DNA from: an uncultured delta proteobacterium
Lineage (GTDB): Bacteria; Desulfobacterota; Binatia; UBA9968
DNA: 64,000 nt
Direction: 5' to 3'
NCBI GenBank assembly: GCA_963737905.1
Contig: CAVTUQ010000004.1
Location: forward strand, 64,001 to 128,000
The first letter of the stretch is position 1. Every line of letters begins with the position of its first letter. Under the pieces are notes generated by a model that was not told the origin of the DNA, did not search any database, and saw only the letters and a program-made list of their open reading frames with translations. A program made the position numbers and the translations under genes. Positions 6,511-64,000 of the stretch are shown here, in pieces.

Positions 6511-6581
6511 TAATTGCTTTAACAACGCTCTCACCTCCCTAACTCATTGGTTTTCTGAAAGAAACCCGGCTTTCGATGACC

Positions 6582-6596
6582 TGGCATGCTAGCTGC
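6582..6596 (+). promoter_or_regulatory. Sigma54 -24/-12 promoter
   Basis: TGGCATGCTAGCTGC matches TGGCAC-N5-TTGC with correct GG-N10-GC spacing; lies between the activator gene and the gene at 6644. Confidence 0.8.
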
Positions 6597-6643
6597 TCTA
6601 TTGTGTTTCCATCAACTTCACTCAACCAAGGGAGGAAAGGAAA

Positions 6644-7555
6644 ATGCAACACAATTATTCATACCAATCGGCGCTCGAAGTCTCGGACCGAATCGGCTGG
6701 AAAGTGGACGATATCATCGGCGGCGACAAGCGGCTCGACTTCACCAAACCGTTCATGCCGGAATCGCTGGCTCAGGTGCAGCGGCTTTCCTTTCTCACCC
6801 CTGACGAACAGCTGACTCTAAACCAGATTCGCGGGCATGAGTATCTTGCCATGTTCGGTCTCGTCGAGGAGTTCATACTCCCCTACGTGGTGGACCATGC
6901 GCGGTCGCAACTCTCCGGAGACGACTACCGGGTGCGGGCCTTGCTCCAGTTCGCCGGTGAAGAGGCAAAGCATATCCATCTTTTCAAGCGCTTCCGGCAG
7001 GAGTTCGAGAACGGGTTCGGCAGCAAATGCGACTTCATCGGTCCCGCCGAGGACGTGAGCCGGTTTGTCCTTTCCCATAGTCCTTTGGGAGTCGGAATTG
7101 CGATTCTACACATCGAGTGGATGACTCTCAGGCACTACATCGAGGGCGTCAGGGATAATCAGGATCTCGACCCCCAGTTCAAGAGCCTGCTCAAGAACCA
7201 CTGGCTGGAGGAATCCCAACACACGAAGCTCGACACATTGATCCTGGAATCGGTGGTAAAGGAATCGACCCCCCAAGAGATCGACCAGGCTTTCAAGGAA
7301 TACGGCGAGATTGGTGCCTTTCTCGACCAGGGGATCCAGCAGCAAGCGGAGTTAAATGTGGAAAGTTTCGTTCAAGCGAGCGGAAGAAACCTCTCCAAGA
7401 GCGAGCGCGAAGAGATGAACAACGCCGTTATCAAGGGCATGCGCTGGACCTATCTTGGAACCGGCATGACGCATCCAAACTTTCTCGCCACCGTCGAGGA
7501 GATTAAGCCTGAAGCGAGAAAACAGATAGAGGAAATGGCGCCAGTGTTTTGTTGA
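6644..7555 (+). CDS. Ferritin-like diiron protein (AurF-like oxygenase fold)
   Basis: Carboxylate/His ligand pattern LVEE, EEAKH, HIE, EESQH. Confidence 0.75.
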   Translation: MQHNYSYQSALEVSDRIGWKVDDIIGGDKRLDFTKPFMPESLAQVQRLSFLTPDEQLTLNQIRGHEYLAMFGLVEEFILPYVVDHARSQLSGDDYRVRALLQFAGEEAKHIHLFKRFRQEFENGFGSKCDFIGPAEDVSRFVLSHSPLGVGIAILHIEWMTLRHYIEGVRDNQDLDPQFKSLLKNHWLEESQHTKLDTLILESVVKESTPQEIDQAFKEYGEIGAFLDQGIQQQAELNVESFVQASGRNLSKSEREEMNNAVIKGMRWTYLGTGMTHPNFLATVEEIKPEARKQIEEMAPVFC

Positions 7556-7590
7556 GCAAGAATGCAAAATGAAAAATGTAGGAGGAAGCT

Positions 7591-7968
7591 ATGTCAGTCG
7601 CAGAAACAACAAAAGAAATGCCTTTGACGAAAGACATTCTAGACCACCACTTAAAGTGTTTTGGCGAGGGCGACCTCAAGGGTATTCTATCTGACTATGC
7701 CCCGGGTGCCGTCCTGTTCACGTCGGACGGACCCCTCAGGGGAGTCGACGCAATTAGGCCGTTGTTCCAGGCGATGATTGCGGAGTTTGGAAAGCCTGGC
7801 GCAGCGTTCAGCATGAAGCAGCAGTTTGTCGAGGGCGACTATGCCTATATTCTATGGGGCGCGGAGACTGCAGAAAACTTGTACGAGATAGGCACGGACA
7901 CGTTCGTCGTGCGCGACGGCAAGATTGTGGCCCAGTCATTTACCGGCAGGATTACGCCCAAAGGCTGA
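7591..7968 (+). CDS. SnoaL/NTF2-like protein
   Basis: HHLKCFGEGDLKGILSDYAPGAV...GTDTFVVRDGKIVAQS. Confidence 0.85.
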   Translation: MSVAETTKEMPLTKDILDHHLKCFGEGDLKGILSDYAPGAVLFTSDGPLRGVDAIRPLFQAMIAEFGKPGAAFSMKQQFVEGDYAYILWGAETAENLYEIGTDTFVVRDGKIVAQSFTGRITPKG

Positions 7969-8016
7969 AAACAAGTCTTTATTCCGGTGACAAAATTTAA
8001 CGAGGAGGCGAGTATC

Positions 8017-9400
8017 ATGACAACGCAAACGTCGAAGGTGAAAGAAGAGCTCAAAGACAAGATCAAGGGGAACGTCCTGGTTCCCGAGGACAGCGGTTAC
8101 AAGGAAGCTCGGCAGATATGGAACGCCATGATCGATCGGCGGCCTGCGGTTATCGTGCAGTGCGTACAGGCTGACGATGTTCCACCAGCAATCCAGTTTG
8201 CGCGAAAAAGCGGGCTTGAACTTTCAATTCGCGGTGCCGGACACAACATCGCAGGCAATGCCCTCTGCGACAACGGCGTTATGATCGATTTTTCAAGAAT
8301 GAAAAGCGTTCGCGTAGATGCCGGGAAACGGCGCGCCTATGTCGAGCCTGGGGCGACCCTCGCGAATTTCGACGAAGCGGTACAGGCGCACGGCTTGGCG
8401 ACGCCGGTGGGGATCAATTCCACGACAGGCATCGCCGGTTTAACGTTGGGCGGCGGCTTCGGGTGGCTGACTCGCAAATACGGCATGACGATCGACAATC
8501 TCGTCTCCGTCGACATGATCACGGCCGATGGCAAGAAATTGCGGGCAAGCCAAAGCGAAAATGCGGACCTTTTCTGGGCTATTCGCGGCGGCGGGGGAAA
8601 TTTTGGCGTCGTCACCCAATTTGAATTCCAACTTTTCCCCGTGGGACCCGAAATCGTCGCCGGCTTGATCGTTTTTCCGTTCAACCAGGCAAAGCAGATA
8701 CTGACCAAGTATCGTCAATTTGTAAATTCAGCACCCGAGGAGCTCAACGTCTGGGTGGTGCTCCGCAAGGCGCCTCCGTTGCCTTTTCTTCCGGAAAACG
8801 TGCACGGCAAGGAGGTCGTTGTGTTGCCGGTCTTTTACTGCGGGGCCGCAGCGGAAGCAGAGAAACTGATCGCTCCTCTGCGCGCTTTCGGTAATGCCCA
8901 CGGCGAGCATATCGGCGCACAGCCCTATGTTGCGGTGGCAAAAGGCCTTTGACCCTTTGCTGACGCCGGGCGCGAGAAATTATTGGAAGTCGCATAACTT
9001 CACGGAGCTTGCTGACGGAGCGCTGAATTCCATTATCGAGTTCGCCGGGAAGCTGCCCTCCCCGCAGTGTGAGATTTTCATAGGGCTGATTGCCGGTGCG
9101 CCCAACCGCGTCGCCCCTAACGCGATGGCCTATGGTCATAGGGACGCGAAATTCGTGTTGAACGTGCACGGACGATGGGACGAAGCGAAGGATGACCAGA
9201 AGTGCATTGGGTGGTCACGCGAGTTTTTTAAAGCCAGCAAGCCCTACGCGTCAGCCGGCGCTTACGTAAATTTTATGACCGACGAGGAGGGCGACCGCGT
9301 CGCCGCGGCTTACGGATCCAACTATGATCGCCTGGTGGAAACCAAGAAACGCTACGATCCGGAAAATATTTTTCACTTGAATCAGAACATCAAACCTTGA
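8017..9400 (+). CDS. FAD-linked oxidase (BBE/6-HDNO family), frameshift near 8935
   Basis: RGAGHN flavinylation motif, GIAGLTLGGG, RGGGGNFGVVT; C-terminal YVNF...KKRYDPENIF in the second frame (8894-9400); GAGGAGG RBS before 8017. Confidence 0.9.
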
Positions 9401-10458: not shown

Positions 10459-11373
10459 ATGGAAAAATCATCCGAGAAAGAAATCACCACGGCGACTCTT
10501 ACAGTTTTCGCCCTTATCGCCTTTGCCGCCAACTCGGTCTTATGCCGATTGGCGCTCGGCCAGTCGGCCATCGATCCTGCAAGTTACACGGCGGTCAGGC
10601 TGATCACAGGAGCGGTCACTTTGTGGATCATCACTCGCTTCCTCCGGGCCGGATCCTTCGGGAAGTCCGGCGGCAGCTGGATTTCTGCAGCAATGCTTTT
10701 TCTATATGCGGTAACCTTTTCTTTCGCCTACCTAAGCTTGAGCGCGGGAACTGGCGCGTTGATTCTATTCGCAGCGGTGCAAATTACGATGATCGCGGTT
10801 GGCCTCTATGCGGGCGAAAGACCGGAGCTATTGGAGTGGCTGGGATTATTCATCGCCATTGCTGGCCTGATTTATTTAGTGTTTCCCGGGATCACCGCCC
10901 CGTCCATCCTCGGATCGCTACTCATGGCCACCGCCGGCATCGCCTGGGGTGTTTACTCTCTCAGAGGCCGAGGAGCCAGTGATCCTGTCAGTGTCACCAC
11001 GGACAATTTTCTACGCACAGTGCCCTTGGCCCTCGGTCTCATCTTGTTATGGCTATCGACGCTGACTATAACCCCGATGGGTTTTCTCTGGGCAGCCCTA
11101 TCCGGATCCATCACGTCGGGAGTCGGCTATGTCCTATGGTATGCGGCGCTGCCTCGCCTGACAGCGACACGGGCGGCCACGGTCCAGCTAGCACCGGCAC
11201 CGCTAGCAGCACTTGGCGGAGTTGTCGTTTTATCTGAAGCGATTAGTCTGCGTCTGGTGATATCGTCTGTGGTGATTCTGGGTGGGGTCGGCCTGGCGGC
11301 TTCCCGCCGCACGTCCGTTTCCAAGCGGCCAGAGTCTTTAACCGCTGTCGTACAGACTTCCATCAGAGACTAA
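10459..11373 (+). CDS. DMT/EamA family transporter
   Basis: ALIAFAANSVLCRLAL and SGVGYVLWYAALP motifs; multiple TM segments; starts 5 nt after the read-through methyltransferase stop. Confidence 0.9.
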   Translation: MEKSSEKEITTATLTVFALIAFAANSVLCRLALGQSAIDPASYTAVRLITGAVTLWIITRFLRAGSFGKSGGSWISAAMLFLYAVTFSFAYLSLSAGTGALILFAAVQITMIAVGLYAGERPELLEWLGLFIAIAGLIYLVFPGITAPSILGSLLMATAGIAWGVYSLRGRGASDPVSVTTDNFLRTVPLALGLILLWLSTLTITPMGFLWAALSGSITSGVGYVLWYAALPRLTATRAATVQLAPAPLAALGGVVVLSEAISLRLVISSVVILGGVGLAASRRTSVSKRPESLTAVVQTSIRD

Positions 11374-21029: not shown

Positions 21030-22389
21030 TCAGGCCGGTCGGATATTCTGATTCAGGTGGAACAGATTAGCCGGGTCATACTTTGCTTTCAGCATTCGCA
21101 GGCGCTGGTAGTTCGGCCCGTAAGCTGCCGCGACGGCGTCTTCTCCATCATCGTCCCCCAGATAGTTTACGTAGCGCCCTGGCGTGAAGCTGGGCCGCAT
21201 GAAGTCATATGATTGCCGCGCCCACGCAATATTCGGAGCGTTGTCGGCCGGTTCGAGCCATTCGGAGACGACCAGAAAGTTATAGCCCTCGTGCCGGTGT
21301 GGGAACGCCGTCTCGCTCACGCCGACACGCGTCGCTGCGCCGTGGATGTGCTCCAGCACCAGGCCGCTCATCGGCGAGGGACATGCCGCGAACTGAGAAA
21401 CTAGCGTGTCGATGGCCCCATCGCTGAGTTCACCTATGAAATTGGATTTCCAGTAGTTAAGGGCGCCCCGAGGGAATCCGGCGTCCAGCATCCTATTCGT
21501 CTCCTCGTAGCTTGTTGGACCGATGGAATCCAGAATCGGCGTGCCGAACTTCTTAATCGGCTCAAGGGCAGCCTCCGCTTCGGCTAGAGGACCGCAGTGG
21601 CATAAAATGATCACGGCGATCTGAGCGCCGTCGGGCGCGTGCAGCAGCGCGCCGAAGATCGTGAGGTCGTCGGTAAGTCCCGCCAACGTGATTTCCCGGA
21701 AAAATTTCAGCACATCGCGAGCACGATCGAAAGGGTGAGCGATGAGGCCGCTTGTGACCGTCCCAACCGGATGTAAGCGGTACTCCAACCATGAGACAGC
21801 GCCGAAGTTACCGCCGCCGCCTTGAAGTCCCCAGAAGAGATCGGCGTTTTCCTCCTTGCTTGCCCGCACGATGTCACCCGAAGCAGTAACGACCTCCGCC
21901 GAAAGAATTGTCCATCGCCAGCCCATACTTGGCCATGAGCCACCCGAGGCCGCCACCGAGCGTCAAACCCGCGATGCCAGTCGTGGAGATCACGCCGCCG
22001 GTGGTCGCTAGCCCATGTGCCTGCGTTTCGCGGTTGAATTCACGCCAGGTCACTCCGCCCTGAGCGCACGCCGTGCGACGGACCGGATCAACGTGGATGC
22101 CCTTCATGAGCGACATGTCGAGCATCAGCCCATCGTCACAGACAGCCCGGCCGGCAACGTTATGACCGCCGCCGCGCACCGCCAATTCGAGTCCGTGAGT
22201 GCGCGCGAAGTTTACCGCGTCAACGATGTCAGCGTTACCGACGCAGCCGGCAATCAACGCAGGGTGCCGATCGATCATACCGTTGTGGACCCGCCGTACT
22301 TCATCGTACCCGGATTGATCGGGACGCAGGAGCACGCCGGAAAAGCGAGCGGACAGGTCAACGATACTGGCTTGATCGAGCGCAACCAT
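21030..22389 (-). CDS. FAD-linked oxidase (BBE family), frameshift near 21900; paralog of 8017-9400
   Basis: RGGGHN, GIAGLTLGGG, GGGGNFG, YVNY, KAKYDPANLF across two frames. Confidence 0.9.
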
Positions 22390-22531: not shown

Positions 22532-25500
22532 TTAACTCAACTGCTCAAGTTCCGCTTCCGCCTTTTCCAGCCACAATCCCATTTCTATCTCCCGCATCAT
22601 CGCGACGCCATTGGCGAGATGCATCTTCGCTTGCTCCAGATCACCTGTTCGCCGATGCAGTTTTCCCAAACCAACGTGGCAGTGAGCGATGAGCGGGCGC
22701 ATGCGAAGTTCATTGGCTAATGCCATCGCGTGATCATAATGATTTTCCGCCTTTGCCGTATCCGGAACATCGGCGTGCAAAAGACTCTCGCCGAGGACGT
22801 AAAGTGACAACGCTGCGTAGCCGCGATACCCTTGGGTCCGGGAAGATTCAAGCACCTGGTTAGCAAGCGAGGTGGCTTCTTCCAGTTTACCGACCAAAGG
22901 TAGCCCCGCGCCAACTGTACACGCGGCCAAACATTCCTAGCTCGCTCGTTGGTCAATTCCAACAGGGGTATCGCCTCGCCGACACGCCCAGCCGCAGCAA
23001 ATGCATTACCGAGAGCAACCGCCACTCGGGGAAGATTCTGACGGATGTCCCATAAGCGACAAACTTCCAGGCTCCGCTCTAGTAGCGGGATCGCCTTTTC
23101 CAAAGCGCCCTTCCTAAAATGCAGGCATCCGACCTCCAGATACGCAGTGTTTAGACTAAAAGGGTGATTGGCCACCTCGGCAATACGAATCGCTTCGTCG
23201 CCGTGAATAGCTGCTTCGCGAAACTCGCCAACTTCCGCCAGGCCCCATGTCAAATGACAGAGCGATCCAATCGACGCAACAAAGGCTAAGCCAAAGCGCT
23301 CGTAAATCTGATCGCCTACTATAGCATCGACATTCTTCTTAAAATGGTAAATAGCCAGATCAAAGTCACCGATCGATCGATGTGCCGACCCAAGAAAATG
23401 ATTTGCCTGAACCTGGAGGCTAAAATTGCCAATTGCTGAAGCGATCGCGAGGGCCCGTTCTCCCTTCTCAATAGCCTGAATGGGATCATCTCCCGCCTGC
23501 CCAAAGTAACCGGCCAAATAGGCTGAAATTTGCCCGAGCCGGCGTTGGTCATTCAAAGTCTCAGCGAGCACTTCCGCTTCGCGCATGCGTTCTAAAACTT
23601 TGGCTTGTTCTCCAAGAGGCTGGAGGGAGCTACGCATGTGGATACGAATATCTATAGCTTGCTCGATCATTTGACGGCTTTCGGGCAGATGCTTGGGCAC
23701 TTCAAGTGCCCGATCGAAATAGCTCACCGCTTCACGGTGCGCAGAGCGATCCGCCGCTTTGGCGCCGGCTTGCCGTAAGTAGGTCAACGCCTTCTCCCAC
23801 AGCTCGCCGTGGAAACGCGTGGTGCGCAAGCAGCTCAACCTGCTCGGCCAATCGATCTCCGTAGAGCCGTTCGATGGCTTCGACGATTCTGGCGTGCAGC
23901 GTGCGCCGCCGCTCTTGTAAGACACTGCCGTAAGCAACCTCGTGGGTCAGCGCATGTTTGAACGTGTATTCGAGATCGGGAAACAAGCGGGTCTCGTAAA
24001 CAAACTCGGCCGCTTGAAGATGACCGAGCTCGCGCCGGAGTTCTTCTCCGGATAATTCAGCGATGGCCTGAAGCAAGACAAACGGCACATCCTTGCCGAT
24101 CACCGACGCCGACTGAAGCAGACGCTTTTCATCGATTGACAGCCTATCGATGCGCGCGGCCAATACGGCGTGCACTGTCGCCGGTACCTTTGTAAGATCG
24201 AGCGAACCGGCGAGACTATATCGGCCTCGCTCGCCGACGAGAACTTTAGTTTCGACCAATGTCCGGACACTCTCCTCCAAGAAAAACGGATTGCCCTCGG
24301 TTCGCTCGATCAAGAGTTGCTTCAGCGGCTGCAAGTTCGCCTCGTCCCCCAACACCCCTCGGAGCAATTCCTCGGCACTCTCGGGTGGCAGCGGATCGAT
24401 CCGCAGCTGGCTATAATATGTTTTGTTCCCCCAGCCATGGCGGTATTCCGGGCGGTAATTCGCAAGGAGAAGAAGCGACGCAGTGGGCAAGCTATCGATC
24501 AGGCCGTCTAAGAAAGACTGAGTCTCCGAATCGATCCAATGCAGATCTTCGAACACCAAGATCACGGGTTGCACCTGGCTCTCGCGCAGCAGCAAACCTT
24601 TGATCGCGCCTAAAGTCCGCTGCCGGCGCTGGGACGGGTCTAGGTTCTGCCATTGTTGATCTTCAACCGCAACGTCTAACAATGACAGCAATGCCGGCAA
24701 CGCGGGCTCTAAAGTCTTATCCAATGTCAGTAACTTGCCGGTGACTTTCTCGCGGACATCGCGCTGAGTGTCACGATCCTGGATTTTGAAATACGCCTTC
24801 AGCAAATCAATTACAGGAAGGTAAGGCGTAGCTTTTCCGTAAGAAACTGAGCCCGATTCAAGGATCAAGCATCCCTCGGTACGATGCGAATGAGTGAACT
24901 CATAAAACAGTCGCGATTTCCCAACTCCAGGCTCACCCACCACGGCAACCACCTGACCATGCCCGGTTTGTGCTCGCTCTAGCGCTTTGCGCAGTTGCTC
25001 CGTCTCGGCGTCGCGCCCGACGAATCGTGTAAGTCCGCGCGCAACCGCTGCTTGCAAGCGGGAGCGCGCAGGTCCGGCACCACTGATCTCGTACACCTCC
25101 GCCGGTTCGCTCATCCCCTTCACATTAACCGGACCGATTGATTTCACTTGAACAAAGCCCTCGGCAAGGCCAAGGGTATCAGCAGTTATCAGAACCGACC
25201 CCGGCATCGCCATCTGCTCCATCCGAGCAGCCAAGTGCGTGGTCTGACCCACCGCTGTGTAATCCATCTTCAAGTCGCTCCCGATGGACCGCACAACGAC
25301 CTCGCCTGAGTTCAAACCAACTCTTATCTGGATAGGAATTCCCTCGGTCCGCCTTACTCCCTCAGCATACCTCTTAACCGACTCCTGCATCCTGAGCGCC
25401 GCATAGCATGCTCGGACAGCATGGTCTTCATGCGCCAGCGGCGCGCCAAACAGCGCCATAATGCCGTCGCCCATCACCTGATTGCCTGTGCCTTCGTAGC

Positions 25501-25873
25501 GATGAACTGCCTCCATCATGTGTTCGAGAATCGGATCGAGAAGCTTCCGCGTTTGCTCCGGGTCGCGGTCCGCAAGTAACTCCGTTGAGCCCTTCATATC
25601 AGCAAAAAGCACTGTGACTTGCTTGCGCTCGCCTTCGAGCGCGCTCTTCGACGTAAGAATCTTTTCGGCGAGGTGCTTGGGCGTGTAAGCTTCAGGAGAG
25701 TTAAACCGTACGAGAATAGGTCCGGCGACAGGATGCGCGCACTCGGGGCAAAACTTTGCGGTCGCGGAAAGCTGAGTGCCACAGTTCACGCAGCTGCGGG
25801 CCAGCGGAGCCGCACACTCCTCGCAGAACTTTGCTCCGGATGGATTTTCATGCTGGCAGCGAGAACACTTCAT
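22532..25873 (-). CDS. Second cyclase - AAA - TPR protein, at least 2 frameshifts (near 23815 and 22900)
   Basis: ORFs 23732-25873, 22717-23937 and 22532-22930 are consecutive parts; the N-terminal 700 aa are closely similar to 17449-20844. Confidence 0.88.
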
Positions 25874-39561: not shown

Positions 39562-40100
39562 TGCGTATTCCGATGAAATCGGCACCGATTCCGAAGCAAA
39601 TCGGCAATCCGAGGAGTCGGAGCGAAGCGACGCTGGGATTTTGTTCATAACCTAAGGGTACTGTTGGTTGCAAGTCCGTTAAATCATTTCTTGGTTTTTC
39701 TGATCGACTCTCCTTTCAGTTCGATTTTGTAAGCGTGGTGCAGCAAGCGATCCAAGATGGCATCGGCGACGGTGGGTTCACCGATGATGGTATGCCAGTC
39801 TTTGATCGGGCACTGGCTGGTGATGACAGTGGGATTTTTCTGATAGCGGTCCTCGATGATTTCGAGCAGATCGTTACGTTGCGAATCATCGAGTGGAGTC
39901 AGAAACAGATCATCGAGGATAAGCAGTTGGACCTTGGCCAAGCGGGTGAGCATTTTGAGATGGGAGCCGTCGGCTTTGGCTTGAAGGAGCATTTCGAACA
40001 GACGCGGAGCGCGCAGATAGAGTACGGTGTAACCGTGGCGCGCAACGAAGTTGCCGAGCGCGCAGGCGATGTAACTTTTGCCGACGCCCGTGGGCCCTCG
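39562..40100 (-). mobile_element. istB: IS21-family remnant: terminal repeat plus 3' part of istB
   Basis: End TGCGTATTCCGATGAAATCGGCACCGATTCCGAAGCAAATCGGCA (TG terminus, internal ATTCCGA..AAATCGGCA repeats); IstB motifs GPTGVGKS, LLILDD, ITSQ, ADAILDRLLH (39684-40100); no istA. Confidence 0.88.
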
Positions 40101-40601
40101 AGTGATGGACGTATCGGAAAAGACGACGTTCGAATTCTGAGTAGAGCAAATTTCGAACGGCGAATTGAGGAATTGAAACAGGATTCCGAGGGACAAGAAC
40201 AAGATGCTCTTATCCGCGGCATTTATGTGCTTCGCCAATTCTGCGTTGTTGAGAGAAAAACCAATGTTGTACTTGTTTCGGAAGCCACCCTGCAGCAGAA
40301 CACGAAGATCAGGGCCCTGCTCTATCGATTGCTAGATTATAGAATTATCCATAGTGCGGGAACAGCACTGACTCATAAATCGCAGCCCGGTACGTATCAC
40401 GCGTTCGCGATCGATATTGGTTGTTATGCCCACATGCGCGTGCTCGAGGATAAGTTCACTGAAATTGACCTTGCGGATCCGGAAGCCAAAGAAAAGATGA
40501 GGTCTGCTCCTATCTTAGATGAGAAGGACTTCGAAACCATTTGGGAGTCTGTTCCCACAGACCCCGAACTAGCTTTAAAAAACCAGGAAACCTTGTCGTA
40601 A
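40100..40601 (+). pseudogene. C-terminal fragment of an unrelated protein (possibly the helical tail of a P-loop ATPase)
   Basis: Open frame ...LYRLLDYRIIH...YHAFAIDIGCY... begins at the IS junction without its own start. Confidence 0.45.
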
Positions 40602-55968: not shown

Positions 55969-57245
55969 TTCAAATTTCCTCGCCCGACGACCAGGGCGGA
56001 ATTTTTCGATCCGAAGCCGATGCAATTACAAAGCGCGTAGTCGACGGCTTTGGCGATGCCGCGATTGGGGATGTAATTGAGATCACACTCAGGGTCCGGC
56101 TCTTCGTAGTTGATTGTCGGAGGGAGAAAACCGTCGTTCATCCCGAGGATCGCGCTGACGACTCCCGCTGCACCGGAGGCACCTTGCGGATGGCCGATCA
56201 TCGATTTGAGCGAGCTCATGGGAATTTGGTACGCGTCTTTGCCAAAGCACAGCTTGACGGCCAGGCTCTCGGTTTTGTCGTTCAGGACCGTTGAGGTGCC
56301 GTGCAGCGCCAGGTAACCGATTTCATCCTTGCAGATCCCCGCATCCTGGACCGCTATCGTCATCGCGCGAGCCGGCTCCTCTCCGCAGGGGTCCAAACGG
56401 ACGCGATGATAAGCATCGCAAGTCGATCCGTAGCCCAGCACCTCGGCGAAAACCGCCGCGCCGCGGGCGAGCGCAAGCTCTCGCTCCTCCAACACCAAGC
56501 TCCATGCACCCTCGCCCAGCACAAATCCGTCCCGCATGCGATCAAAGGGACGCGACCCGCCGTGAGGGTTCTCGTTATGGGAGGTGGAGACCGCCTGCAT
56601 TATACAGAAGCCTTGCATGATCCCGGGAGTGATCGTTGCGTCGACACCGCCGGTGATCAGACGGTCGGCAAGACCGAAACGGATCATATTGAAAGCATAG
56701 CCGATGGCGTCGGTGGAGCTGGTGCATCCCGTCGAGATCATGTGGCTCGATCCGCGGAAATCAAAATAAAGCGACACTTCGCTCGAAATCGTGCCCAGAG
56801 TCGAGCTGGACACATTATAGGCGCTCACTTTACGCAATTGATCAGTGAAGTAGAGACGATATTGCTCTTCGATAAAGTCCGGCGTGCCGCCGCCGCTCCC
56901 GAGCACAACGCCCCAGGAGCGCTTTTCTTCCAAGCTCGTTTCGTGCAAACAGACCTGGGCCACGCCGAGCGCTTCCTTCGTTGCCGCGATGGCGAGAGGA
57001 ACCGCGCGTCCCACGCGCTTCAGCTCCCTCGGCGCGAGATAGTCTTCCGGTTTGAAGTGTTTCACCTCACCGGCAATGCGGCACGAAAGGGATTCAGGAT
57101 CGAAAAAAGTGATGGTATCGATGCCGCTCCGTCCACTACGAGTGGCATCCCAAAATTCTCCGATGCCGACGCCGTTGGGACTCATCGCGCCTAGCCCAGT
57201 GACGACGACCCGGTGTCGCTTTGGATGGCCATTATTGCCGTTCAT
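55965..57245 (-). CDS. fabF: Beta-ketoacyl-ACP synthase II family
   Basis: RVVVTGLG; catalytic Cys-His-His in STGCTSS, HGTST..ND and KSMIGH; GFGSKN. Confidence 0.85.
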   Translation of the reverse strand: MNGNNGHPKRHRVVVTGLGAMSPNGVGIGEFWDATRSGRSGIDTITFFDPESLSCRIAGEVKHFKPEDYLAPRELKRVGRAVPLAIAATKEALGVAQVCLHETSLEEKRSWGVVLGSGGGTPDFIEEQYRLYFTDQLRKVSAYNVSSSTLGTISSEVSLYFDFRGSSHMISTGCTSSTDAIGYAFNMIRFGLADRLITGGVDATITPGIMQGFCIMQAVSTSHNENPHGGSRPFDRMRDGFVLGEGAWSLVLEERELALARGAAVFAEVLGYGSTCDAYHRVRLDPCGEEPARAMTIAVQDAGICKDEIGYLALHGTSTVLNDKTESLAVKLCFGKDAYQIPMSSLKSMIGHPQGASGAAGVVSAILGMNDGFLPPTINYEEPDPECDLNYIPNRGIAKAVDYALCNCIGFGSKNSALVVGRGNLK

Positions 57246-57362
57246 CTTGACTCTTCACACGGCGAAATGCTTCACTTCGAGCATAGCACCCGGGGAACGG
57301 TCCGTTAAGGCGGTGCCGGAAGAATCCAGAGTTTTTCCATCAGAGAGAAAAGTCGCCTATAG

Positions 57363-58160
57363 ATGACATTTCAAAACCAAGTTGTCCTGATCACCGGTGC
57401 ATCCAAGGGCATCGGCCGGTGCCTCGCCATTGACATAGCGTCGCGGGGAGCCATCGTCGTCGGCTGTGGCCGTTCGCCGGAAGGATTGCAGGCGCTGTCG
57501 ACCGAATTGCGTCGCACCAGCCCTTTATCCACCGCCGTTAAGTGCGACGTAGCTCAACTCGATCAGGTTCGCGCGATGGTTGCCAAAGTTCTCTCCGAGT
57601 TCGGCAAGATCGACATTCTGATCAACAACGCCGGCATCGGCATGCGCAAGCCTTTCGCCGAAACGCCCATCGATATCATCGAAGACGTGATGAGAGTCAA
57701 TTACCTCGGCACGGTCTACTGCACCCACGAAGTCCTGCCGTCGATGATCGCACGACGGAGCGGGCACATCGTGAATATCTCCTCCGCCGCAGGAAAGATC
57801 GGCACACTGAACCTAGCCGGTTACTGCGCCTCCAAGTTTGCCGCGAACGGGCTCAGCGAAAGCCTCTACCACGAGCTCACACCCCTTGGAATTAACGTAT
57901 CCGTTATCTGCCCGGGTGCGGTGCGAACCGACTTCAATAAAGGGTTCGCGGACACGCCGCCTAAATCACCTTCCGCATTAGTCGTCAGTCCGGAATTTGT
58001 TTCAGCGGCGGTGATCAAGGCCATCGAGAAAAAGCGCTTCGAGGTCGTGCTGCCGCGTTGGTTGGCGTTGATCTGTTGGTTTAAAGGCATGGCTCCAAAC
58101 CTTTTTCGCACGGTTGCGCGCCGTTCTTTCCGGCATGTTGTGGAAAACAAAAAGACGTGA
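57363..58160 (+). CDS. Short-chain dehydrogenase/reductase
   Basis: TGASKGIG, NNAG, YCASK. Confidence 0.95.
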   Translation: MTFQNQVVLITGASKGIGRCLAIDIASRGAIVVGCGRSPEGLQALSTELRRTSPLSTAVKCDVAQLDQVRAMVAKVLSEFGKIDILINNAGIGMRKPFAETPIDIIEDVMRVNYLGTVYCTHEVLPSMIARRSGHIVNISSAAGKIGTLNLAGYCASKFAANGLSESLYHELTPLGINVSVICPGAVRTDFNKGFADTPPKSPSALVVSPEFVSAAVIKAIEKKRFEVVLPRWLALICWFKGMAPNLFRTVARRSFRHVVENKKT

Positions 58161-58223
58161 CATATAAAATAAACGAGCACGCAGCAAAGCCGCAGGGTAT
58201 CAAAAAAACAATTTAGGGGATAC

Positions 58224-58814
58224 ATGTTACTCAAAACAATTTTCGTTCTGTTGTGGTTCCTATCATTCAGCCATTTCCCAGCGTTCGCCCAATTAGGTCC
58301 TAAGGATGGGACCGATCTGAGTCCAACGGATCTCCAGCGAGTCAAAGTAGGACAGCCCGCGCCTGACTTCACGCTGCAAGATGTCGACGGCAAAAACATG
58401 TCGCTGTCGGATTTCCGCGGGAAGAAGTCAGTTGTCCTGGTCTTCTATCGCGGCTACTGGTGACCCTTCTGCATCGAACAGCTCGGGAAGCTGAAAAGTT
58501 TATTGACGAAACCGCAGAAAGAGAAGATCCAGATTCTTGCCGTCAGTGTCGACAGCCATGAAGACTCTAAAAAATTCGCCCAGATGCTCCAGAAGCGCTT
58601 CGAAGGTGAGTTCGACTTTCCACTTCTGGAAGACAAAGACCACAAAGTGATCAACCGCTACGGGATATTCAACCCGGATGGTTCTGGCTGGCCCCATCCG
58701 ACTACTTTGGTGATTGATCCGCAGGGCGTGGTGCGTTGGAAATTCGTAGAAGTGGATTACAAGAAGAGACCTTCCAACGAACAGATACGACAGCAGTTAG
58801 CCAAGATTAAATAG
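58224..58814 (+). CDS. Exported peroxiredoxin-like (AhpC/TSA) protein, predicted selenoprotein with UxxC (Sec at TGA 58461-58463)
   Basis: Signal peptide; [10 protein letters not shown]...[19 protein letters not shown]...LAVSVD...[14 protein letters not shown] 58503-58814 is in frame. Confidence 0.92.
58479..58493 (+). promoter_or_regulatory. Putative bacterial SECIS element
   Basis: CAGCT-CGGGA-AGCTG; loop starts 20 nt after UGA. Confidence 0.6.
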
Positions 58815-59934
58815 CCGAGTTGCCGATCCATGGGATGCGGGTAGAGGCCCTTTCTGTTCGGAACACCAGGCAAGATCGAGAAAACGTTCGAGCTCTCGGT
58901 CGTCGATCACCGGAGCTTCCACACGATGGCGAGCGAGCAATCTGCGCGCGGCCGAGTCATCGAACTGAACGTCTTGTTTTAGATAATCTCGATAAGGCGA
59001 CAGCATCCGCGCCACTCTCATTTCGAGGGGCGATCGGATGGCCAGCCGTTCGGTAGCATTCACAAGAGACAGATTGTGTAAGTCGAGACGCGCGCTCATC
59101 ATCTCCAGCATGCGCTTTTGCGTGGGTGGATCTTTAGCAACAAGATGAATCGTTTTGCCTGCCGCTTCGGGATCGTCACTCAGTCGTTCAATGGCCGCCG
59201 CGACGTATTCCACTGGAACAATATTAAATCGAGCCTGGGGTCGGCCCTGAATACGAAGAGGAGTATTTCCGGCGCCGGCTTTGCACGACAAGGCGATCAG
59301 GAGCCGGAGAAACGCCAAAAACAGGTTGGACGGCACTCCGCCAGGCGTTGAGGGCGCGCCCCCGACAACGATGCTAGGTCTGAAAATTACTAGATCGACT
59401 CCAAGCTGGCGGCAGGTTTGTTTGAGCCGGATCTCTAGCTCCAGCTTGAGCCGTTCATAACCATTGTGAAATTCCTGCCCCACATCCGTTTGGTTTTCAT
59501 AGATCATGCCTTCGCGGCCGCCGCAAACAAACGCCGTTGAGATATGGACCCAACGAGCGTAAACCCCCGGAACGGAGGATTTTAAGGAGAGCAAGTGGCC
59601 CGTCGATCTGAGCAAATCGCGCTGATTCTTGCTCGCTGGCTGAGAAAGTCGTCTCTCCGGCGCAGTGGATCACCGCATCGATGGTTGACCCGTGGCGCTT
59701 AAGATTGCCCTGTATCACAGCAGGATTTGCGAGATCTCCGTCCACCACCTCGAGCGATCGCCGAGAAACTTCACCAAAGATTTCCGCCACCCGCTGCTCT
59801 CCCGTTAGTCCAGCCCGGTGCCGGGCCAAGATCACCACGCGCCGGCCGGCCAGCAAAAGGCGACTAACCACATGCCTGCCGATGAAGCCCGTAGCGCCGG
59901 TTACGAGGACCGCCGGATCTGATTTTCTGAGCAT
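58797..59934 (-). CDS. Extended SDR (fatty acyl reductase / thioester reductase-like), frameshift near 59565
   Basis: LVTGATGFIG, IHCAG; HISTAFV, YERLK, FRPSIV, IVPVEYVA. Confidence 0.85.
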
Positions 59935-60651
59935 GAGAGATTCCTACGATTGAGGCTCCGTCCTCCCCACCTATCCCAGTGCCCCGCGTACCGCTGCGTG
60001 TCGAGTCTAAGCGAATGGAGAAAAAGAACCCATAGAATGAACGACAAAGCACGCCACGGACCCCACGTGAGGAAACGGCGTCCTGACGTAATCAGCGGGA
60101 GAGGAATGACTTTCGTCCGACCCCGTCTTTTCAATCGCTGGCTAAAATCTAAGTCTTCCATGAACACGTCGCGATAGCCGCCAATTTCGCGAAAGATCGC
60201 GGCCCGCACGAAGATGCCCTGATCCCCGTAATAGTTGCGCGTCAGAAAGTAGCGCCGCCGGTTGATCCAGCTGATAAACCTTAGACTCCATACCGCTTTC
60301 TGCAAAGCGGTGCTCGAAAGCTCCTCCTAAAATAGCGTTGTCTTGCAAAACGCGCTGGATCTCCGTCAAGGCGTCCAGCGGCGGAAACGAGTCCGCGTGC
60401 AGAAAGAAAAAGATATCCCCGACGGCTGCGGCGGCGCCGGCATTCATCAGAGCCGCGCGGGTGGAACGGCCAGGCCATAAAATACGCGCGCGCCCGGCCA
60501 CGGCATCTTCGGTCGCTTTTATGCCACCCGAAGCGGCCACGATAATTTCTGCCGTTTCGATACCACCCAAGCGCTCCAAGTGATCGAGTGTGAAACGAAG
60601 CGCTTGAGCGTCATTTCGAGCAGGTATGATGATCGAGATAGACGGATCCAT
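59901..60651 (-). CDS. GT2 glycosyltransferase, TIGR04283-like, frameshift near 60300
   Basis: ISIIIPARND, RAALMNAGA, FLHAD; YGDQGIFVR, FMED, TSGRRF. Confidence 0.8.
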
Positions 60652-60907
60652 AGCCGGTCAGTCGCATTCCGCCGCGTCAACGAAACCCTCTGACTGTTTC
60701 TCTAACCAGCACATGCTTCGGGAGCTTCACCGAGCTTAGCAAATTTTACATCAAGCTTACTCAGCCGATCAACTCGCTTCAACGAGGATCAGGCGAACTG
60801 GACATCGCCGTCCAGGATGGACACCTCCCTTCGCCCCGCGCAAGGCGATCAGTTCGACTTCAACGCGACAAACTCTACAAGTAGTTCTCAATTTTAGCAT
60901 CCACTCG

Positions 60908-61507
60908 CTACAGCAGTTTTTTTCCAACCATCAGTGCGTCGACGTAGTCTTTCCGCAAGCTCGCGTAGTCCTCCGTCAATTGGACACCCAGCGCATCCGC
61001 CATTCGCGTGATAAAGTTTCTGTAACTGGTGACCGCGGCGATATCGAGAATCTCGGACTCACTCCAACCTGCCTCCTTTAGGGTCCGCACATCGGGCGCG
61101 TCCACTTCGCTCGGGCGAAGGGTAATTTTCTCAGCGTACTCGAGCATGGCCTTATCCTTGTCATCCAGCTTCGACTGGCGAAAATCGCGCGCGACCGCCA
61201 TCACGAGATCGTAATCTCCATTGACTTCTTTACGGAGAAACTCTCCGTGGGCAACGGTTCAATAACTGCACTTGAGCAGCGCACCGACGAGAACGGAGAT
61301 CATTTCTTCACGTTTGACTCCCAGGCTGGAACCGCCAAATTGAATCGCCCTGGAAAATACGTGCTGGGCTTCGAGAAGGTCAGGCCGGAGGCTAAAAATC
61401 TTCGCGATGTTTGAGACTTTGCCGGAGTGGTGATTCATTCTTTTCTGATAAATCTCTTTGATCTTGCCTGTCGCCTCCGACTCCTTGATGGTTTTAATAA
61501 AAGGCAC
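60908..61507 (-). CDS. AhpD/CMD-family peroxidase-related protein, predicted selenoprotein CxxU (TGA at 61261-61259)
   Basis: REEMISVLVGALLKCSY-TGA-TVAHGEFLR continues in frame into ORF 60908-61204 (MLEYAEKITL.P...NFITRMADALG). Confidence 0.92.
61232..61248 (-). promoter_or_regulatory. Putative bacterial SECIS element
   Basis: mRNA ACGGAGA-GUU-UCUCCGU: perfect 7-bp stem; loop starts 17 nt after UGA. Confidence 0.75.
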
Positions 61508-61638
61508 CTTTCAAGTTCTCCTTTCAGGGATCGTTATCGACATAGGCCGCTTTGCTCGAGCTCGCGGATCAACGTGTCATCGATAAATTGCCCCGGTTTT
61601 ACATCCTTGGCGAAGCTGTCGGCAAGACATGTGCGGCA

Positions 61639-62193
61639 TCACCCACGAAGAAAATCGTGACCGGAGATTCCCATCGCGTCGGCCATGCGATCGTTGAAAT
61701 TGTAAAGGCAGATTACGTAGACGATATCTAAAATATCTCGATCGGCGAAGCCGTGAGAGCGCAGTCTGTTGATATCGTCTTCGCTCGCCGTCGACGGCGC
61801 GATCGTCAGCTTGACCGCGTAATCCAACATCGCACGCTCCGCGGCCGGCAAATCTAACCGCGTGTAATCCTGCTTGATGCCTTCGACCAAAGGATCGTCG
61901 TTCGATTCGGTACGGAGAGCCTCCCCGTGCGCGGTCATTCAATAACTGCAATGGTTGGTCGCCGATACGACGGTCGCGATCATCTCGCGCTGGCGCCGCG
62001 TGATGCGCGATTCGCCGCGCATGATCCCGACGTCGATCTCGCGCCAAGCGGCCAGAACGTCGGGATTCAGGCTTTGTACTTGCCGGATCATCGAAACTTT
62101 TCCTCGCGCCGCCGACGGGCCGGCGCCAGACTCGTAAATTTCTTTCAGCTTGCCGGTGGCCTCAGACGGAGGGATCGTGCGGATGTAAGGCAT
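61639..62193 (-). CDS. AhpD/CMD-family peroxidase-related protein, predicted selenoprotein CxxU (TGA at 61941-61939)
   Basis: QREMIATVVSATNHCSY-TGA-MTAHGEALR...AMLDYAVKLT..P...YNFNDRMADAMG, contiguous and in frame. Confidence 0.92.
61912..61928 (-). promoter_or_regulatory. Putative bacterial SECIS element
   Basis: mRNA ACGGGGA-GGC-UCUCCGU: 7-bp stem with one G-U; loop starts 17 nt after UGA. Confidence 0.72.
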
Positions 62194-62196
62194 GAT

Positions 62197-62409
62197 TCAC
62201 TCCTCTGCTCCAGATTGAGATCCGCGAGCATTGTTCACGGACAACACATGGCGCACCGCTTCAATAATTTCATAGCGACAGTCGCTTTTTTCCGGAACAC
62301 GGCGCAGCTGGACAACAATATTTTCCGCCTCTGCGCGCGAGTAGAACAATCCCACCGTGCTGACCTCGCCGTTGAGACGAATTTCGTTGACGTAGAGCTT
62401 TTCCATCAT
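62197..62409 (-). CDS. Small hypothetical protein
   Basis: Packed with 3-4 nt gaps between the Fe-S gene and the first AhpD-like gene. Confidence 0.65.
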   Translation of the reverse strand: MMEKLYVNEIRLNGEVSTVGLFYSRAEAENIVVQLRRVPEKSDCRYEIIEAVRHVLSVNNARGSQSGAEE

Positions 62410-62413
62410 TGCC

Positions 62414-63319
62414 TCACCAAGACTTCGGCGTCTTGTAGCCGACTTGTTTTCGTTCCTTCATGAAAGCTCTGTAAGTCCCCGGATGAGATTTCACGTTGTA
62501 GGGACAAACGTCGACGCACAGATGACAGTATTCGTCCCGCAGTCGCGAATAGGGATAGCACTTTTCCAGATCGATGAGCCAGCGTTTGATGCCGTGCGTG
62601 ATGACATGATCTTGCGGGATCGCGTCGCCCGGGCAATTCAACTGGCAGACGTTGCAGTTCATACAAACGTCCTGCACGCCGAATTCGCGCGGGTGATCCT
62701 CGACCAGGGGCAGATCCGTCGTGACAAAGCCCGGACGGAAGCTGGAGCCGTACTTTTCGTTGATCAAGCTGCCGTGGCGGCCGAGCTCGCCGAAACCCAC
62801 CTGATAAAATATCGGAATGGCCTGCACCTCGCTGGCGCCATTGTGGTGTGCGCGCGCCGGATAGCCAAGCGCGCGAACGTAAGCCGCGAGATCGCTCGCG
62901 ATCTCGGTGCACTTGGCATAGGTCCGCATCGCTTCTTCCTCTACGGCGTTGGCGCCATGGACAACTTTTTCGTAGTCTTCCGCCACGCAGGCGACGATAA
63001 CAAATTCGTGCGGCACATCCTCGCCAAGGTCGATCATGTGCGGCTGCAAGCGGCAGATCCCGACCATGTTCGCGCCGAGTTCCATCGATTTGGCTTTGAT
63101 CTGTTCCGTCATCCCCGCCAAATCACTAACTTCGACGCGTTGTGAATTGACCGGGCCATCGCGGAACGGCGCGAGCTTCACCCAGCTATCGCGGTAGGCC
63201 TGAATCTTCGGCGTCGCCGCGGTGTAATGACGCGCCGTCTCCATTCCCGCCGCATGGACCATTGAAGCCAATACCGGATCAGCCATGCCTTGTTCTCGCC
63301 TCGGTGTTATTCCACGCAT
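62414..63319 (-). CDS. Reductive dehalogenase / epoxyqueuosine reductase-like 2x[4Fe-4S] protein
   Basis: IKAKSMELGANMVGI, YVRALGYPA, GFGELGRHGSLINEKYG, VTTDLPL, CMNCNVCQLNCP, C...CHLCVDVCPY; start may be 63286. Confidence 0.82.
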   Translation of the reverse strand: MRGITPRREQGMADPVLASMVHAAGMETARHYTAATPKIQAYRDSWVKLAPFRDGPVNSQRVEVSDLAGMTEQIKAKSMELGANMVGICRLQPHMIDLGEDVPHEFVIVACVAEDYEKVVHGANAVEEEAMRTYAKCTEIASDLAAYVRALGYPARAHHNGASEVQAIPIFYQVGFGELGRHGSLINEKYGSSFRPGFVTTDLPLVEDHPREFGVQDVCMNCNVCQLNCPGDAIPQDHVITHGIKRWLIDLEKCYPYSRLRDEYCHLCVDVCPYNVKSHPGTYRAFMKERKQVGYKTPKSW

Positions 63320-63385
63320 ACTAACGAACCCTTCCTGCGATCATCTTCACGCTGCAATCCCTGCTTCCTTCTCATTCAACCGGAG

Positions 63386-64000
63386 CTAATCCTCGGTCCA
63401 CGCATCGTCGTAAAATTCATGCGGGTTGAAGTCGAGCACCAATCCCCTGCCCTGCTTCGAAAGCTTGTCATAGATCAGCCCGCCGATGGCCGCGGCGCCG
63501 ATGCCCCAAAACGCGCAGTTTTTGAAGTAAGTGATTTGCGCTAGCATCGGTCCGTCCGGTTTTTTCACCCCGGATAACCTCTCCGGCGTCGACAATCTTG
63601 CGCGCGATGTTCGGACGATCGAGCGAGGCTTCCCAAAACACGGCGGTCTTGTCGAGTTCTTCCTGTCCCCAAACATTGGTCATTAAAATGTCGGACCGCT
63701 CCAGGGTGCGTTCGTCGATCTCCCGGCGCATTTGGTTGATATAGCCTCTCTTTTTCAGTGCGATATTGCTCGATACGATCGAGGTGACATGCTGGCCCGG
63801 AACCAGCCAATCGCCATCAAAAACCGGAACATTCGAATTGGTTGCGCAGATAATCACATCGGCGCCATTAACAACCTCGGCCGGTGAATCGACGGCGACG
63901 ACTTCGATGCCCAGAATCGCGGTCATTTCGACTGCGAATTTTTCTCGATTCTCTCGTGTCGGGCTGAAGACACGCACCTTGTTGATCGATTTCCGGATAC
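63386..64000 (-). CDS. Ornithine cyclodeaminase / mu-crystallin family (5' end outside window; frameshift near 63540)
   Basis: RVFSPTRENREKFA, ADVIICATNS..PVFDG.WL.PGQHVTSI, REID, GRT...ITYFKN. Confidence 0.85.

Follow-up and report, generated by a model that had tools for sequence, protein, structure and literature searches.

A small RdhA-like reductase and its 70-residue companion, set among selenoprotein genes in an uncultured member of the Binatia

The stretch of DNA considered here, called the window below, comprises 64,000 nucleotides (nt) of contig CAVTUQ010000004.1 (positions 64,001 to 128,000, forward strand) in GenBank assembly GCA_963737905.1, from an uncultured delta proteobacterium (GTDB lineage Bacteria; Desulfobacterota; Binatia; UBA9968). 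Its open reading frames (ORFs) and their translations reveal five genes lying head to tail on the minus strand between position 60908 and the window end: a gene of the OCD/mu-crystallin family, an iron-sulfur reductase related to the reductive dehalogenases (RdhA), an ORF of 70 amino acids (aa), and two paralogous AhpD-like genes with an in-frame UGA read as selenocysteine (Sec; Table 1). Both the shared direction and the tight packing that the original prediction, made from the letters alone, had described are found on measurement, the gaps from the OCD gene to the second AhpD-like gene being 66, 4, 3 and 131 nt. Among relatives of this locus the element that recurs most constantly is the pair formed by the reductase and the 70-aa ORF, and it is this pair, and its bearing on the selenoprotein genes around it, that we describe. 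Gene calling by ORF length or by codon-position GC chose antisense ORFs, even opposite the reductase, and homology clustering, tblastn and Pfam were used instead. A scan for regulatory sites found no terminator-like site on the minus strand inside the cluster, with promoter and terminator counts near the shuffled expectation, and Rfam returned no family in 56000..64000 at E up to 1 and none window-wide at gathering thresholds, the cobalamin riboswitch and the curated selenocysteine insertion sequence (SECIS) model included. Given the 3-nt gap and the lack of a terminator-like site, the two Sec-AhpD-like genes are probably co-transcribed with the reductase pair.

Table 1. Genes and RNA features of the cluster, in window coordinates.
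Feature	Position	Strand	Remarks
OCD/mu-crystallin-family gene	63386..63998	-	PF02423; type: NAD(P)H imine reductase or cyclodeaminase; 5' end past position 64000
RdhA-family reductase, 301 aa	62414..63319	-	TIGR02486 and 4Fe-4S dicluster domains; predicted corrinoid and two [4Fe-4S]
70-aa ORF, predicted soluble partner subunit of the reductase	62197..62409	-	no Pfam/NCBIfam family; homologues begin at second Met (62406)
AhpD-like selenoprotein 1, 184 aa	61639..62193	-	UGA 61939-61941 = U85 in C-S-Y-U-M-T-A-H
SECIS-like hairpin of AhpD-like 1	61912..61928	-	7-bp stem, GGC loop, 11 nt past UGA
AhpD-like selenoprotein 2, 199 aa, GTG start	60908..61507	-	UGA 61259-61261 = U83 in C-S-Y-U-T-V-A-H
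SECIS-like hairpin of AhpD-like 2	61232..61248	-	7-bp stem, UUU loop; 65-nt stretch z-score -2.0

The reductase had been called reductive-dehalogenase-like in the original prediction, with the caveat that it might prove to be a plain QueG, and its family placement now stands on several comparisons. Its best solved relative is NpRdhA (4RAS; E 2.4e-54), the match covering residues 345-573 of the NpRdhA core, which hold cobalamin and the iron-sulfur clusters, while the N-terminal copy of that core (residues 58-221) aligns onto the same region of the reductase. Chains of PceA type follow at E 2e-22 and 5e-19, and solved QueG matches at E 1e-3 on the Fe-S part only. Against the QueG equivalog model TIGR00276 the protein scores 42.9 bits, failing the cut-off of 200, and it contains a Fer4_7 match at E 1.2e-8. 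Foldseek ranks the AlphaFold model of the reductase in the same order, with NpRdhA at E 1e-15 (TM about 0.55), PceA at about E 1e-13 and QueG at E 2e-6. By sequence and predicted fold, then, it is nearer to the reductive dehalogenases than to QueG, and it is not a QueG by any test that could be run.

Two cluster motifs, C219-x2-C222-x2-C225-x3-C229-P and C254...C265-x2-C268-x3-C272-P, supply eight cysteines which, together with Tyr134 and Arg195, are invariant in an alignment of 11 sequences of 41-89% identity. Tyr134 aligns with Tyr426 of NpRdhA, its proton donor, and Arg195 with Lys488; the roles of Y426, K488, R552 and S422 are described in the available part of PMC7565698. A corrinoid-binding core fold with the catalytic tyrosine and a basic partner thus appears to be present, as judged by alignment and predicted fold only. 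The pocket helix is distinctive: the nearly invariant Glu127 and Glu129 replace Ala419 and Gln421 of NpRdhA, and Ala130 replaces Ser422; Arg552 has an alignment gap opposite it, near Arg259 and Arg261 of the reductase. Because Glu127, Glu129 and Ala130 differ from their NpRdhA counterparts, the substrate is probably other than the halophenolate of NpRdhA. Reading of the N-terminus (MRGITPRREQGMADP), done by eye and with no signal-peptide program, revealed neither a Tat signal nor a hydrophobic h-region, and the protein consists of a single core domain and lacks the vestigial duplicated cobalamin-binding domain of catabolic RdhAs. Its database relatives exceed 1000, with 130 representatives at the 50% cluster level reaching E 1e-30, and the closest (79-89% identity), where named, belong to Candidatus Binatia or 'Deltaproteobacteria'. 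Long fused relatives number nine among the matches found, all of them NpRdhA-like or self-sufficient; the self-sufficient ones bear a fused PF00111 Fer2 domain, and none of the nine carries a CMD/AhpD domain, a blank that counts as weak evidence.

A scan taking one genome per species yielded 79 loci (80 with the window; numbered L001 and so on), which were grouped by identity to the window reductase into 20 Binatia-type loci (72-100%), 39 of alphaproteobacterial type (43-59%) and 21 more distant ones (34-43%). Synteny was counted from tblastn with the window and neighbour proteins, motif scans, and Pfam and NCBIfam scans of flanking ORFs, and IQ-TREE gave a quick maximum-likelihood tree of 80 reductase sequences, from which L067 was dropped as its match spans only 192 aa. 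Some genomes hold two copies of the reductase, in tandem in L001 (195..2059), in differing contexts in the one metagenome-assembled genome (MAG) that contains both L012 and L013, and as L003 and L004 in another single MAG. Several MAGs with Binatia-type loci are labelled Udaeobacter, Thermodesulfobacteriota or Steroidobacteraceae, which suggests mis-binning or mislabelling.

The companion that does not vary is the 70-aa ORF. It lies directly 3' of the reductase in all 19 assessable Binatia-type loci (L015 is left out, since its contig ends within the reductase gene), usually 5-19 nt away but 74-80 nt in three loci, and it is kept also where no selenoprotein genes are near (L016, L017, L018, L055). 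All loci that bear it form one clade in the quick tree, with an SH-aLRT (Shimodaira-Hasegawa-like approximate likelihood ratio test) value of 100. Its conserved core spans about residues 2-48 and includes 13 invariant columns among 18 sequences, and a median dN/dS (ratio of nonsynonymous to synonymous substitution rates) of 0.17, from the 79 of 153 pairs with unsaturated dS above 0.1, indicates that it is under purifying selection. Searches against Pfam and NCBIfam gave no match; of 863 database relatives, the 120 listed are without exception unnamed or called 'hypothetical protein', no Pfam domain occurs among them, and the ESM Atlas returned only unnamed Binatota clusters (score 0.89). No hydrophobic segment is seen on reading its sequence, which argues that the protein is not a membrane anchor of RdhB type. 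An obligate small partner of such a reductase seems to be undescribed.

Structure prediction was also applied to the reductase together with the 70-aa protein, and the model supports binding. The complex scored 0.81, the median of runs at 0.01, 0.83 and 0.81, and the best of three controls reached 0.02; the mark used for such scores, attained by 116 of 157 solved complexes and by 2 of 215 mismatched pairs, is only a rough guide here, as custom alignments were used. The runs share at least 90% of their contacts, with a partner pLDDT (predicted local distance difference test) of at least 75. In the predicted interface the invariant S-T-V-G-L strand of the 70-aa protein pairs with reductase residues 239-252, a hairpin between the two [4Fe-4S] motifs, and also touches the reductase N-terminus. 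The model favours, without demonstrating, an association of the two proteins.

Outside the Binatia-type loci the place of the 70-aa ORF is at times taken by a different small protein. An unannotated domain of ~110 aa stands just downstream of the homologue, or is fused to either of its ends, in 16 of the 39 alphaproteobacterial-type loci (among L019-L059, for example L020 8986..9330; proteins P0126, P0127 and P0128); it belongs to no Pfam family and ends in ...P-L-R-I-M-x-F-S-R-G-D-W-E.... In both small proteins a hairpin with R-P-x-G at its turn leads into a helix that starts S-R-x-E-x-E. Homology between them was considered and rejected, hhalign giving a probability of 0.6% and E 0.1 over 11 columns, with no cross matches in reciprocal searches by hidden Markov models among 4413 locus ORFs, and the ~110-aa domain is treated as a positional analogue only. 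Apart from it, no neighbour family is common to more than about 6 of the 39 alphaproteobacterial-type loci; contexts in these and in the distant loci are diverse, with a Rieske LigXa-like oxygenase, glyoxalase, hydrolases, glutathione S-transferase (GST), cupin, DHO-dehydrogenase-like protein, 5-FTHF cyclo-ligase and HbpS-like protein among the neighbours.

The two AhpD-like proteins match TIGR01926 ('peroxidase-related enzyme') at 136.8 and 108.4 bits, above its cut-off of 81.8, as well as PF02627, and are about 41% identical to each other. Their motifs correspond to the C-x-x-C-x3-H of AhpD with Sec as the second cysteine, and the selenocysteine reading proposed from the window holds across relatives: in Binatia-type loci this codon is TGA in all 19 AhpD-like genes that bear the motif, and a Cys codon in none. 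Orthologues of the first gene (82-88% identity; L001, L003, L004, L008, L010, L011, L013) and of the second (75-86%; L001, L006, L013) share it. A 7-bp hairpin begins 11 nt past each UGA, and although its stem overlaps the conserved peptide H-G-E-x-L-R, so that stem conservation by itself does not count, compensatory changes occur in two of the seven pairs among 22 sequences, in one instance a Gly-to-Ala codon change matched by a synonymous change of a Leu codon. On these sequence grounds the selenocysteine reading of both genes is more than chance. A further read-through, of the terminal TGA of AhpD-like 1 (61639-61641) into a C-R-T-C stretch, was rejected, the 3' sequence not being conserved in seven orthologous loci, and this TGA is a true stop. 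Within the 64 kb no tRNA was detected, tRNA-Sec included, and Pfam scans of 53 other window ORFs contained no selA, selB or selD. Selenoproteins of this AhpD-like C-x-x-U type have long been known, and the available part of a Global Ocean Sampling (GOS) table lists two such families, named AhpD-like 1 and 2 there, with 299 and 70 genes (PMC2398784). With the C-x-x-U motif, the downstream His and the CMD/AhpD fold family in common, the two proteins of the window differ in nothing essential from these or from TIGR01926; solved relatives in Cys form are 2pfx and 3c1l, each filed as 'uncharacterized peroxidase-related protein' (E about 1e-28). The Sec-AhpD-like genes are thus ordinary members of a known selenoprotein family, set apart by their position right after an RdhA-like gene pair and by the paralogues that accumulate around it in relatives. 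A third selenoprotein gene lies 2 kb away (58224..58814, plus strand) and encodes a secreted-looking AhpC/TSA-redoxin with W-U-P-F-C at UGA 58461-58463, which appears as two ORFs under the standard code.

How far these genes accompany the reductase was seen in the neighbourhoods of the other genomes. In the window, L001, L003, L004, L008, L010 and L011 the order is reductase, small ORF, AhpD-like 1, the last two being 2-3 nt apart; L013 repeats this order with a frameshifted small ORF that overlaps AhpD-like 1. Next comes AhpD-like 2 in the window and L013, and also in L001 after one intervening gene. Two more Sec paralogue types (C-R-F-U and C-R/L-F-U-G-I-G-H) occur upstream in L005, L009, L010, L011 and L013. 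The reductase of L013 has as many as five AhpD-like genes around it, and that of L010 four. Linkage to the reductase is nonetheless partial. Thirteen of the 20 Binatia-type loci have AhpD-like genes within about 3.5 kb (the one in L014 is a remnant of 29-38 aa) and seven have none (L002, L007, L012, L016, L017, L018, L055); among the 60 other loci a single one, L078, from a gammaproteobacterial MAG with a 38%-identical homologue, has an adjacent Sec-AhpD-like gene, and in L068 and L030 such a gene lies 3-5 kb off on the opposite strand. In the quick tree all AhpD-bearing loci fall in one subclade of 17 rows (SH-aLRT 97), whose sister is made up of the four AhpD-free loci L016, L017, L018 and L055. 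The constant partner of the reductase is therefore the 70-aa ORF and not the AhpD pair.

Within that subclade the AhpD-like genes are part of a larger assemblage, with an OsmC-related (seleno)protein, a Prx-like selenoprotein, DUF302, an extracytoplasmic function (ECF) sigma factor with a zf-HC2 anti-sigma factor, GntR, ArsM and ArsS as neighbours, and they belong to a wider selenoprotein and redox-stress island. Past a divergent ECF sigma/zf-HC2 anti-sigma pair, and 2-5 kb downstream of the reductase pair, come an ArsM-like methyltransferase and ArsS, an arsenosugar radical-SAM (seleno)protein (L005 9028..11266; L010 12547..14408; L013 13104..14315; L014 11219..12409; also L004). The OsmC-related (NF041052) and DUF302 genes occupy L010 10012..10308, L013 5668..6168 and 10600..11133, L007 about 4880..5405 and L001 about 4620, and the DUF302 region corresponds, by one NCBIfam model, to the C-terminal portion of a CrcB fluoride-channel fusion. 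In L011 a gene for SelO, a protein adenylyltransferase, comes right after AhpD-like 1 on the opposite strand (6531..8027, minus) and is followed by a GST gene. The island is one of at least three contexts of the reductase-partner pair, the others being an IspH-like gene with Fer2 (2Fe-2S ferredoxin) and a housekeeping setting, as in L016, where the pair stands alone among genes for thymidylate kinase (tmk), DNA polymerase III delta' (holB), Met-tRNA ligase (metG) and TatD (tatD).

The ferredoxin context bears on the electron supply of the reductase. In L012 the reductase has a Fer2 gene 84 nt upstream, and the order Fer2-OCD-reductase is found in L003, L004 and L005; an IspH-like gene and, after it, the ferredoxin gene stand immediately ahead of either the OCD gene or the reductase in L003 (3..1232), L005 (2557..3735) and L012 (6751..about 7920), L004 showing the ferredoxin alone as its contig starts there. 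The equivalent region falls beyond the end of the window and is likewise out of view in L001. The IspH/LytB-like gene scores below the IspH cut-offs (142.7 vs 187.85 bits), and in L012 a fragment of a CLC chloride-channel gene lies ahead of the IspH-like and ferredoxin genes. With Fer2 upstream in relatives, Fer2 fused to the self-sufficient relatives, and ferredoxins encoded in the NpRdhA gene cluster, as the available part of PMC10463259 has it, a 2Fe-2S ferredoxin is a likelier electron donor of the reductase than the Sec-AhpD pair, to which the original prediction had assigned the recycling or assistance of the reductase; that the selenoproteins recycle it is not supported.

The OCD gene, which that prediction had counted in the same unit, is more loosely attached. 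Its piece in the window matches PF02423 at E 6.6e-18, is truncated at the window end, and falls into two reading frames (63468..63998 and 63386..about 63548) through one extra base near 63548, as DNA alignment with L003 and L004 makes clear; the orthologues in these two loci are intact, single-frame and 87-100% alike, and that of L003 has delta1-pyrroline-2-carboxylate reductase 6t3e as its best solved relative (E 6.5e-27). In L005 the gene has a different one-base deletion, 7 nt from the extra base of the window. Because at least five other window genes are split likewise, namely 59901..60651 (GT2), 58797..59934 (NAD_binding_4/epimerase), 7987..9400 and 21030..22389 (FAD_binding_4 with BBE) and 22717..25873 (adenylate cyclase/TPR), the frameshift is probably an assembly indel, not gene decay. 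An OCD gene adjoins the reductase in 5 of 20 Binatia-type loci, upstream, and in 3 of 39 alphaproteobacterial-type loci, downstream and followed by a GST gene, and the proteins of these two sets are just 28% identical. The link to the reductase is weak, and the gene may be viewed as a loosely linked NAD(P)H imine reductase.

The explanation that we favour on balance, with modest confidence, is that of a core enzyme made of the RdhA-like reductase and the 70-aa protein, fed by ferredoxin, to which the Sec-AhpD-like proteins are lineage-specific accessories. The core would be a two-protein cytosolic enzyme, a minimal single-domain member of the RdhA family with an obligate soluble partner that is predicted to dock by beta-strand pairing on the hairpin between the [4Fe-4S] motifs (residues 235-252 of the reductase) and on the reductase N-terminus. 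Electrons would be supplied by the small ferredoxin whose gene lies just upstream in relatives, and would cross the two [4Fe-4S] clusters to a corrinoid, which would cleave a carbon-leaving-group bond reductively, halide being the precedent in the family; Tyr134 would give the proton, with Arg195 as its partner. The Sec-AhpD-like proteins would be selenol/thiol enzymes of peroxidase or disulfide-reductase type and not electron donors of the reductase, and they may shield oxygen-sensitive cofactors or handle a reactive product. Their genes are seen as accessories, not as the source of reductant, because they are confined to one Binatia subclade and are part of a broader island.

Several observations pull the other way. 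The reductase scores 108.6 bits against the TIGR02486 RDH model, below the curated cut-off of 160.35, for which reason it is filed as an RdhA-family homologue (RdhA-like) and not as a proven dehalogenase; with 301 aa it falls well short of every characterised RdhA in length, so that corrinoid binding cannot be taken for granted; and its AlphaFold model is moderate, with a mean pLDDT of 70, good for residues 40-210 and below 50 in the Fe-S domain. One of the three complex runs scored just 0.01. The ferredoxin gene is seen in only 4 of the 20 Binatia-type loci and could serve the adjacent IspH-like gene. Seven loci keep the small ORF and AhpD-like 1 just 2-3 nt apart, and AhpD-like genes persist in varied arrangements, upstream in L006, L009, L010, L011 and L013 and downstream elsewhere, which together argue for a functional tie tighter than the word accessory conveys. 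GST genes, moreover, recur beside distant homologues (L012, L054 and L056, whose GSTs are 53-58% identical to each other, and L031 and L037), and being thiol-dependent they would fit a real thiol/selenol coupling; with the kept gap and the linkage through rearrangements they leave room for it.

The interpretation first put forward assigns the five genes to a single dedicated reductive pathway that depends on selenium and B12, the Sec-AhpD proteins re-reducing or otherwise directly assisting the RdhA-like enzyme and the OCD protein handling substrate or product. Of this reading the RdhA identity and the recurring gene order stand, and the AhpD pair and OCD gene as constant partners do not; as a whole we consider it unlikely. 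It draws on the 3-4 nt gaps with no terminator-like site on the coding strand, the reductase/small ORF/AhpD-like 1 order in eight loci including the window, the many AhpD-like genes of L013 and L010, the Sec-AhpD-like gene adjoining the gammaproteobacterial homologue of L078, and the recurrent GSTs. Against these stand the absence of AhpD-like genes from seven Binatia-type loci and their lack of adjacency in 59 of the 60 others, a distribution for which a single gain in one subclade of the quick tree suffices. RdhAs receive single electrons via Fe-S clusters and AhpD-type proteins are two-electron dithiol/selenol carriers, a mismatch that also speaks against the Sec-AhpD pair as reductant. These AhpD-like paralogues are found alongside OsmC, Prx, ArsM and ArsS genes, as in a general selenoprotein island; no RdhA-AhpD fusion occurs among the nine long relatives found, itself weak evidence; and the two OCD sets share so little identity.

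The opposite view, that the neighbours are functionally unrelated and that the reductase-partner pair landed in, or came to be surrounded by, selenoprotein genes with shared regulation at most, seems to us distinctly improbable. The three or more differing contexts of the pair, the presence of both kinds of copy (L012 and L013) in one MAG and the abundance of Sec-AhpD-like families in metagenomes, as the GOS gene counts given above attest, are what it would lead one to expect; it fares poorly with the 2-3 nt gap of seven loci, which implies that translation of the small ORF and of AhpD-like 1 is coupled there, and with a linkage that survives several rearrangements. More speculative, and in our estimation a long shot, is a broader pathway in which the pair, the Sec-AhpD-like proteins and the upstream IspH-like, 2Fe-2S ferredoxin and OCD proteins would constitute an undescribed cytosolic system of aerobic soil Binatia that couples corrinoid cleavage of a C-X bond to selenol chemistry. 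The selenoprotein might then, for example, trap or reduce a reactive halogenated or oxidised intermediate or reset the enzyme, the substrate would be nitrogen-bearing, such as a halogenated or oxidised aromatic amino-acid derivative, and the GSTs by distant homologues would be a sulfur-based counterpart. Least credible of all, to the point that we set it aside, is a housekeeping role for the Fe-S protein as a variant of epoxyqueuosine reductase (QueG), for although JGI calls many relatives of 80-90% identity 'epoxyqueuosine reductase', the L016 pair stands among housekeeping genes and conservation within the Binatia is strong (72-90% identity), its QueG model score fails the cut-off and is lower than its RDH model score, solved QueG aligns on the Fe-S part only, the fold match is nine orders of magnitude weaker than that to NpRdhA, 301 aa leave no room for the extra C-terminal tRNA-binding domain of QueG, and two copies per genome occur.

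If the preferred reading, a ferredoxin-fed core of reductase and 70-aa protein, is set beside known systems, the nearest include NpRdhA (4RAS, 6ZXU) and the self-sufficient BhbA and JtRdhA, which share the two [4Fe-4S] motifs, the catalytic tyrosine and a basic partner (Arg195 here for Lys488), are cytosolic with neither Tat signal nor membrane anchor, and make a ferredoxin-type electron supply plausible for the reductase. They differ in being about 700-1100 aa long, whereas the present protein of 301 aa has neither the duplicated domain nor any reductase domain, and the separate 70-aa partner is a feature of the present system. Respiratory RdhA-RdhB systems such as PceA have a homologous catalytic core and a small second gene adjoining, but with a Tat signal and a membrane anchor, neither of which is seen here on reading the sequences, and the PceA matches are much weaker (E 5e-19 to 2e-22). 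QueG shares the cobalamin class-III superfamily and the Fe-S dicluster module and differs in that the N-terminal catalytic part of the reductase does not align with the solved QueG. To our knowledge, every reductive dehalogenase characterised so far is either a respiratory enzyme associated with the membrane or a large catabolic one with the duplicated domain.

In the classification given by the accessible text of PMC10463259, RdhAs comprise a respiratory, a transmembrane and two catabolic subfamilies, the catabolic ones being defined by the vestigial duplicated core (cobalamin-binding) domain. A survey of 2025, in the part available, adds a 'simplified cytosolic' RdhA-like clade that lacks the duplicated domain, comes from cold-seep metagenomes, has a mean length of 395 aa and is found mainly in Desulfobacterota and Chloroflexota (PMC12219181). 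Biochemically uncharacterised according to that text, this clade is the closest described kind to the reductase, which differs from it in length (301 aa against the mean of 395), in its presence in Binatia and in having homologues of ~50% identity in Alphaproteobacteria; the same text, its supplementary neighbour tables aside, mentions no small partner ORF and no selenoprotein neighbours (PMC12219181). The reductase is best called a very small variant of this 'simplified cytosolic' RdhA-like kind. Literature searches found no paper joining a reductive dehalogenase with Binatia and nothing describing the combination of reductive dehalogenase, selenocysteine and AhpD; a paper on dehalogenases of Binatota deals, in the portion available, with haloalkane and dichloromethane dehalogenases only and there mentions neither 'selen' nor 'cobalamin'. 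Supplementary tables aside, the gene combination is thus absent from the papers found, in keeping with the original prediction, and the embedding of the reductase pair among selenoprotein genes seems to be undescribed.

A single-domain protein of 301 aa with a soluble partner of 70 aa would be the smallest working unit of this class of B12 enzymes, attractive for studies of mechanism and for engineering. Its conservation across an uncultured, globally distributed soil phylum, with relatives in Alphaproteobacteria, hints at a widespread cytosolic reductive reaction in aerobic soils, and the recurrent embedding among selenoprotein genes offers a concrete case of possible cooperation between selenium and B12 enzymes. 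The window also adds three selenoproteins to the little-described biology of the Binatia. Elsewhere in it, at 39684..40238 on the minus strand, lies a fragment of an IS21-family gene for an IstB ATP-binding protein.

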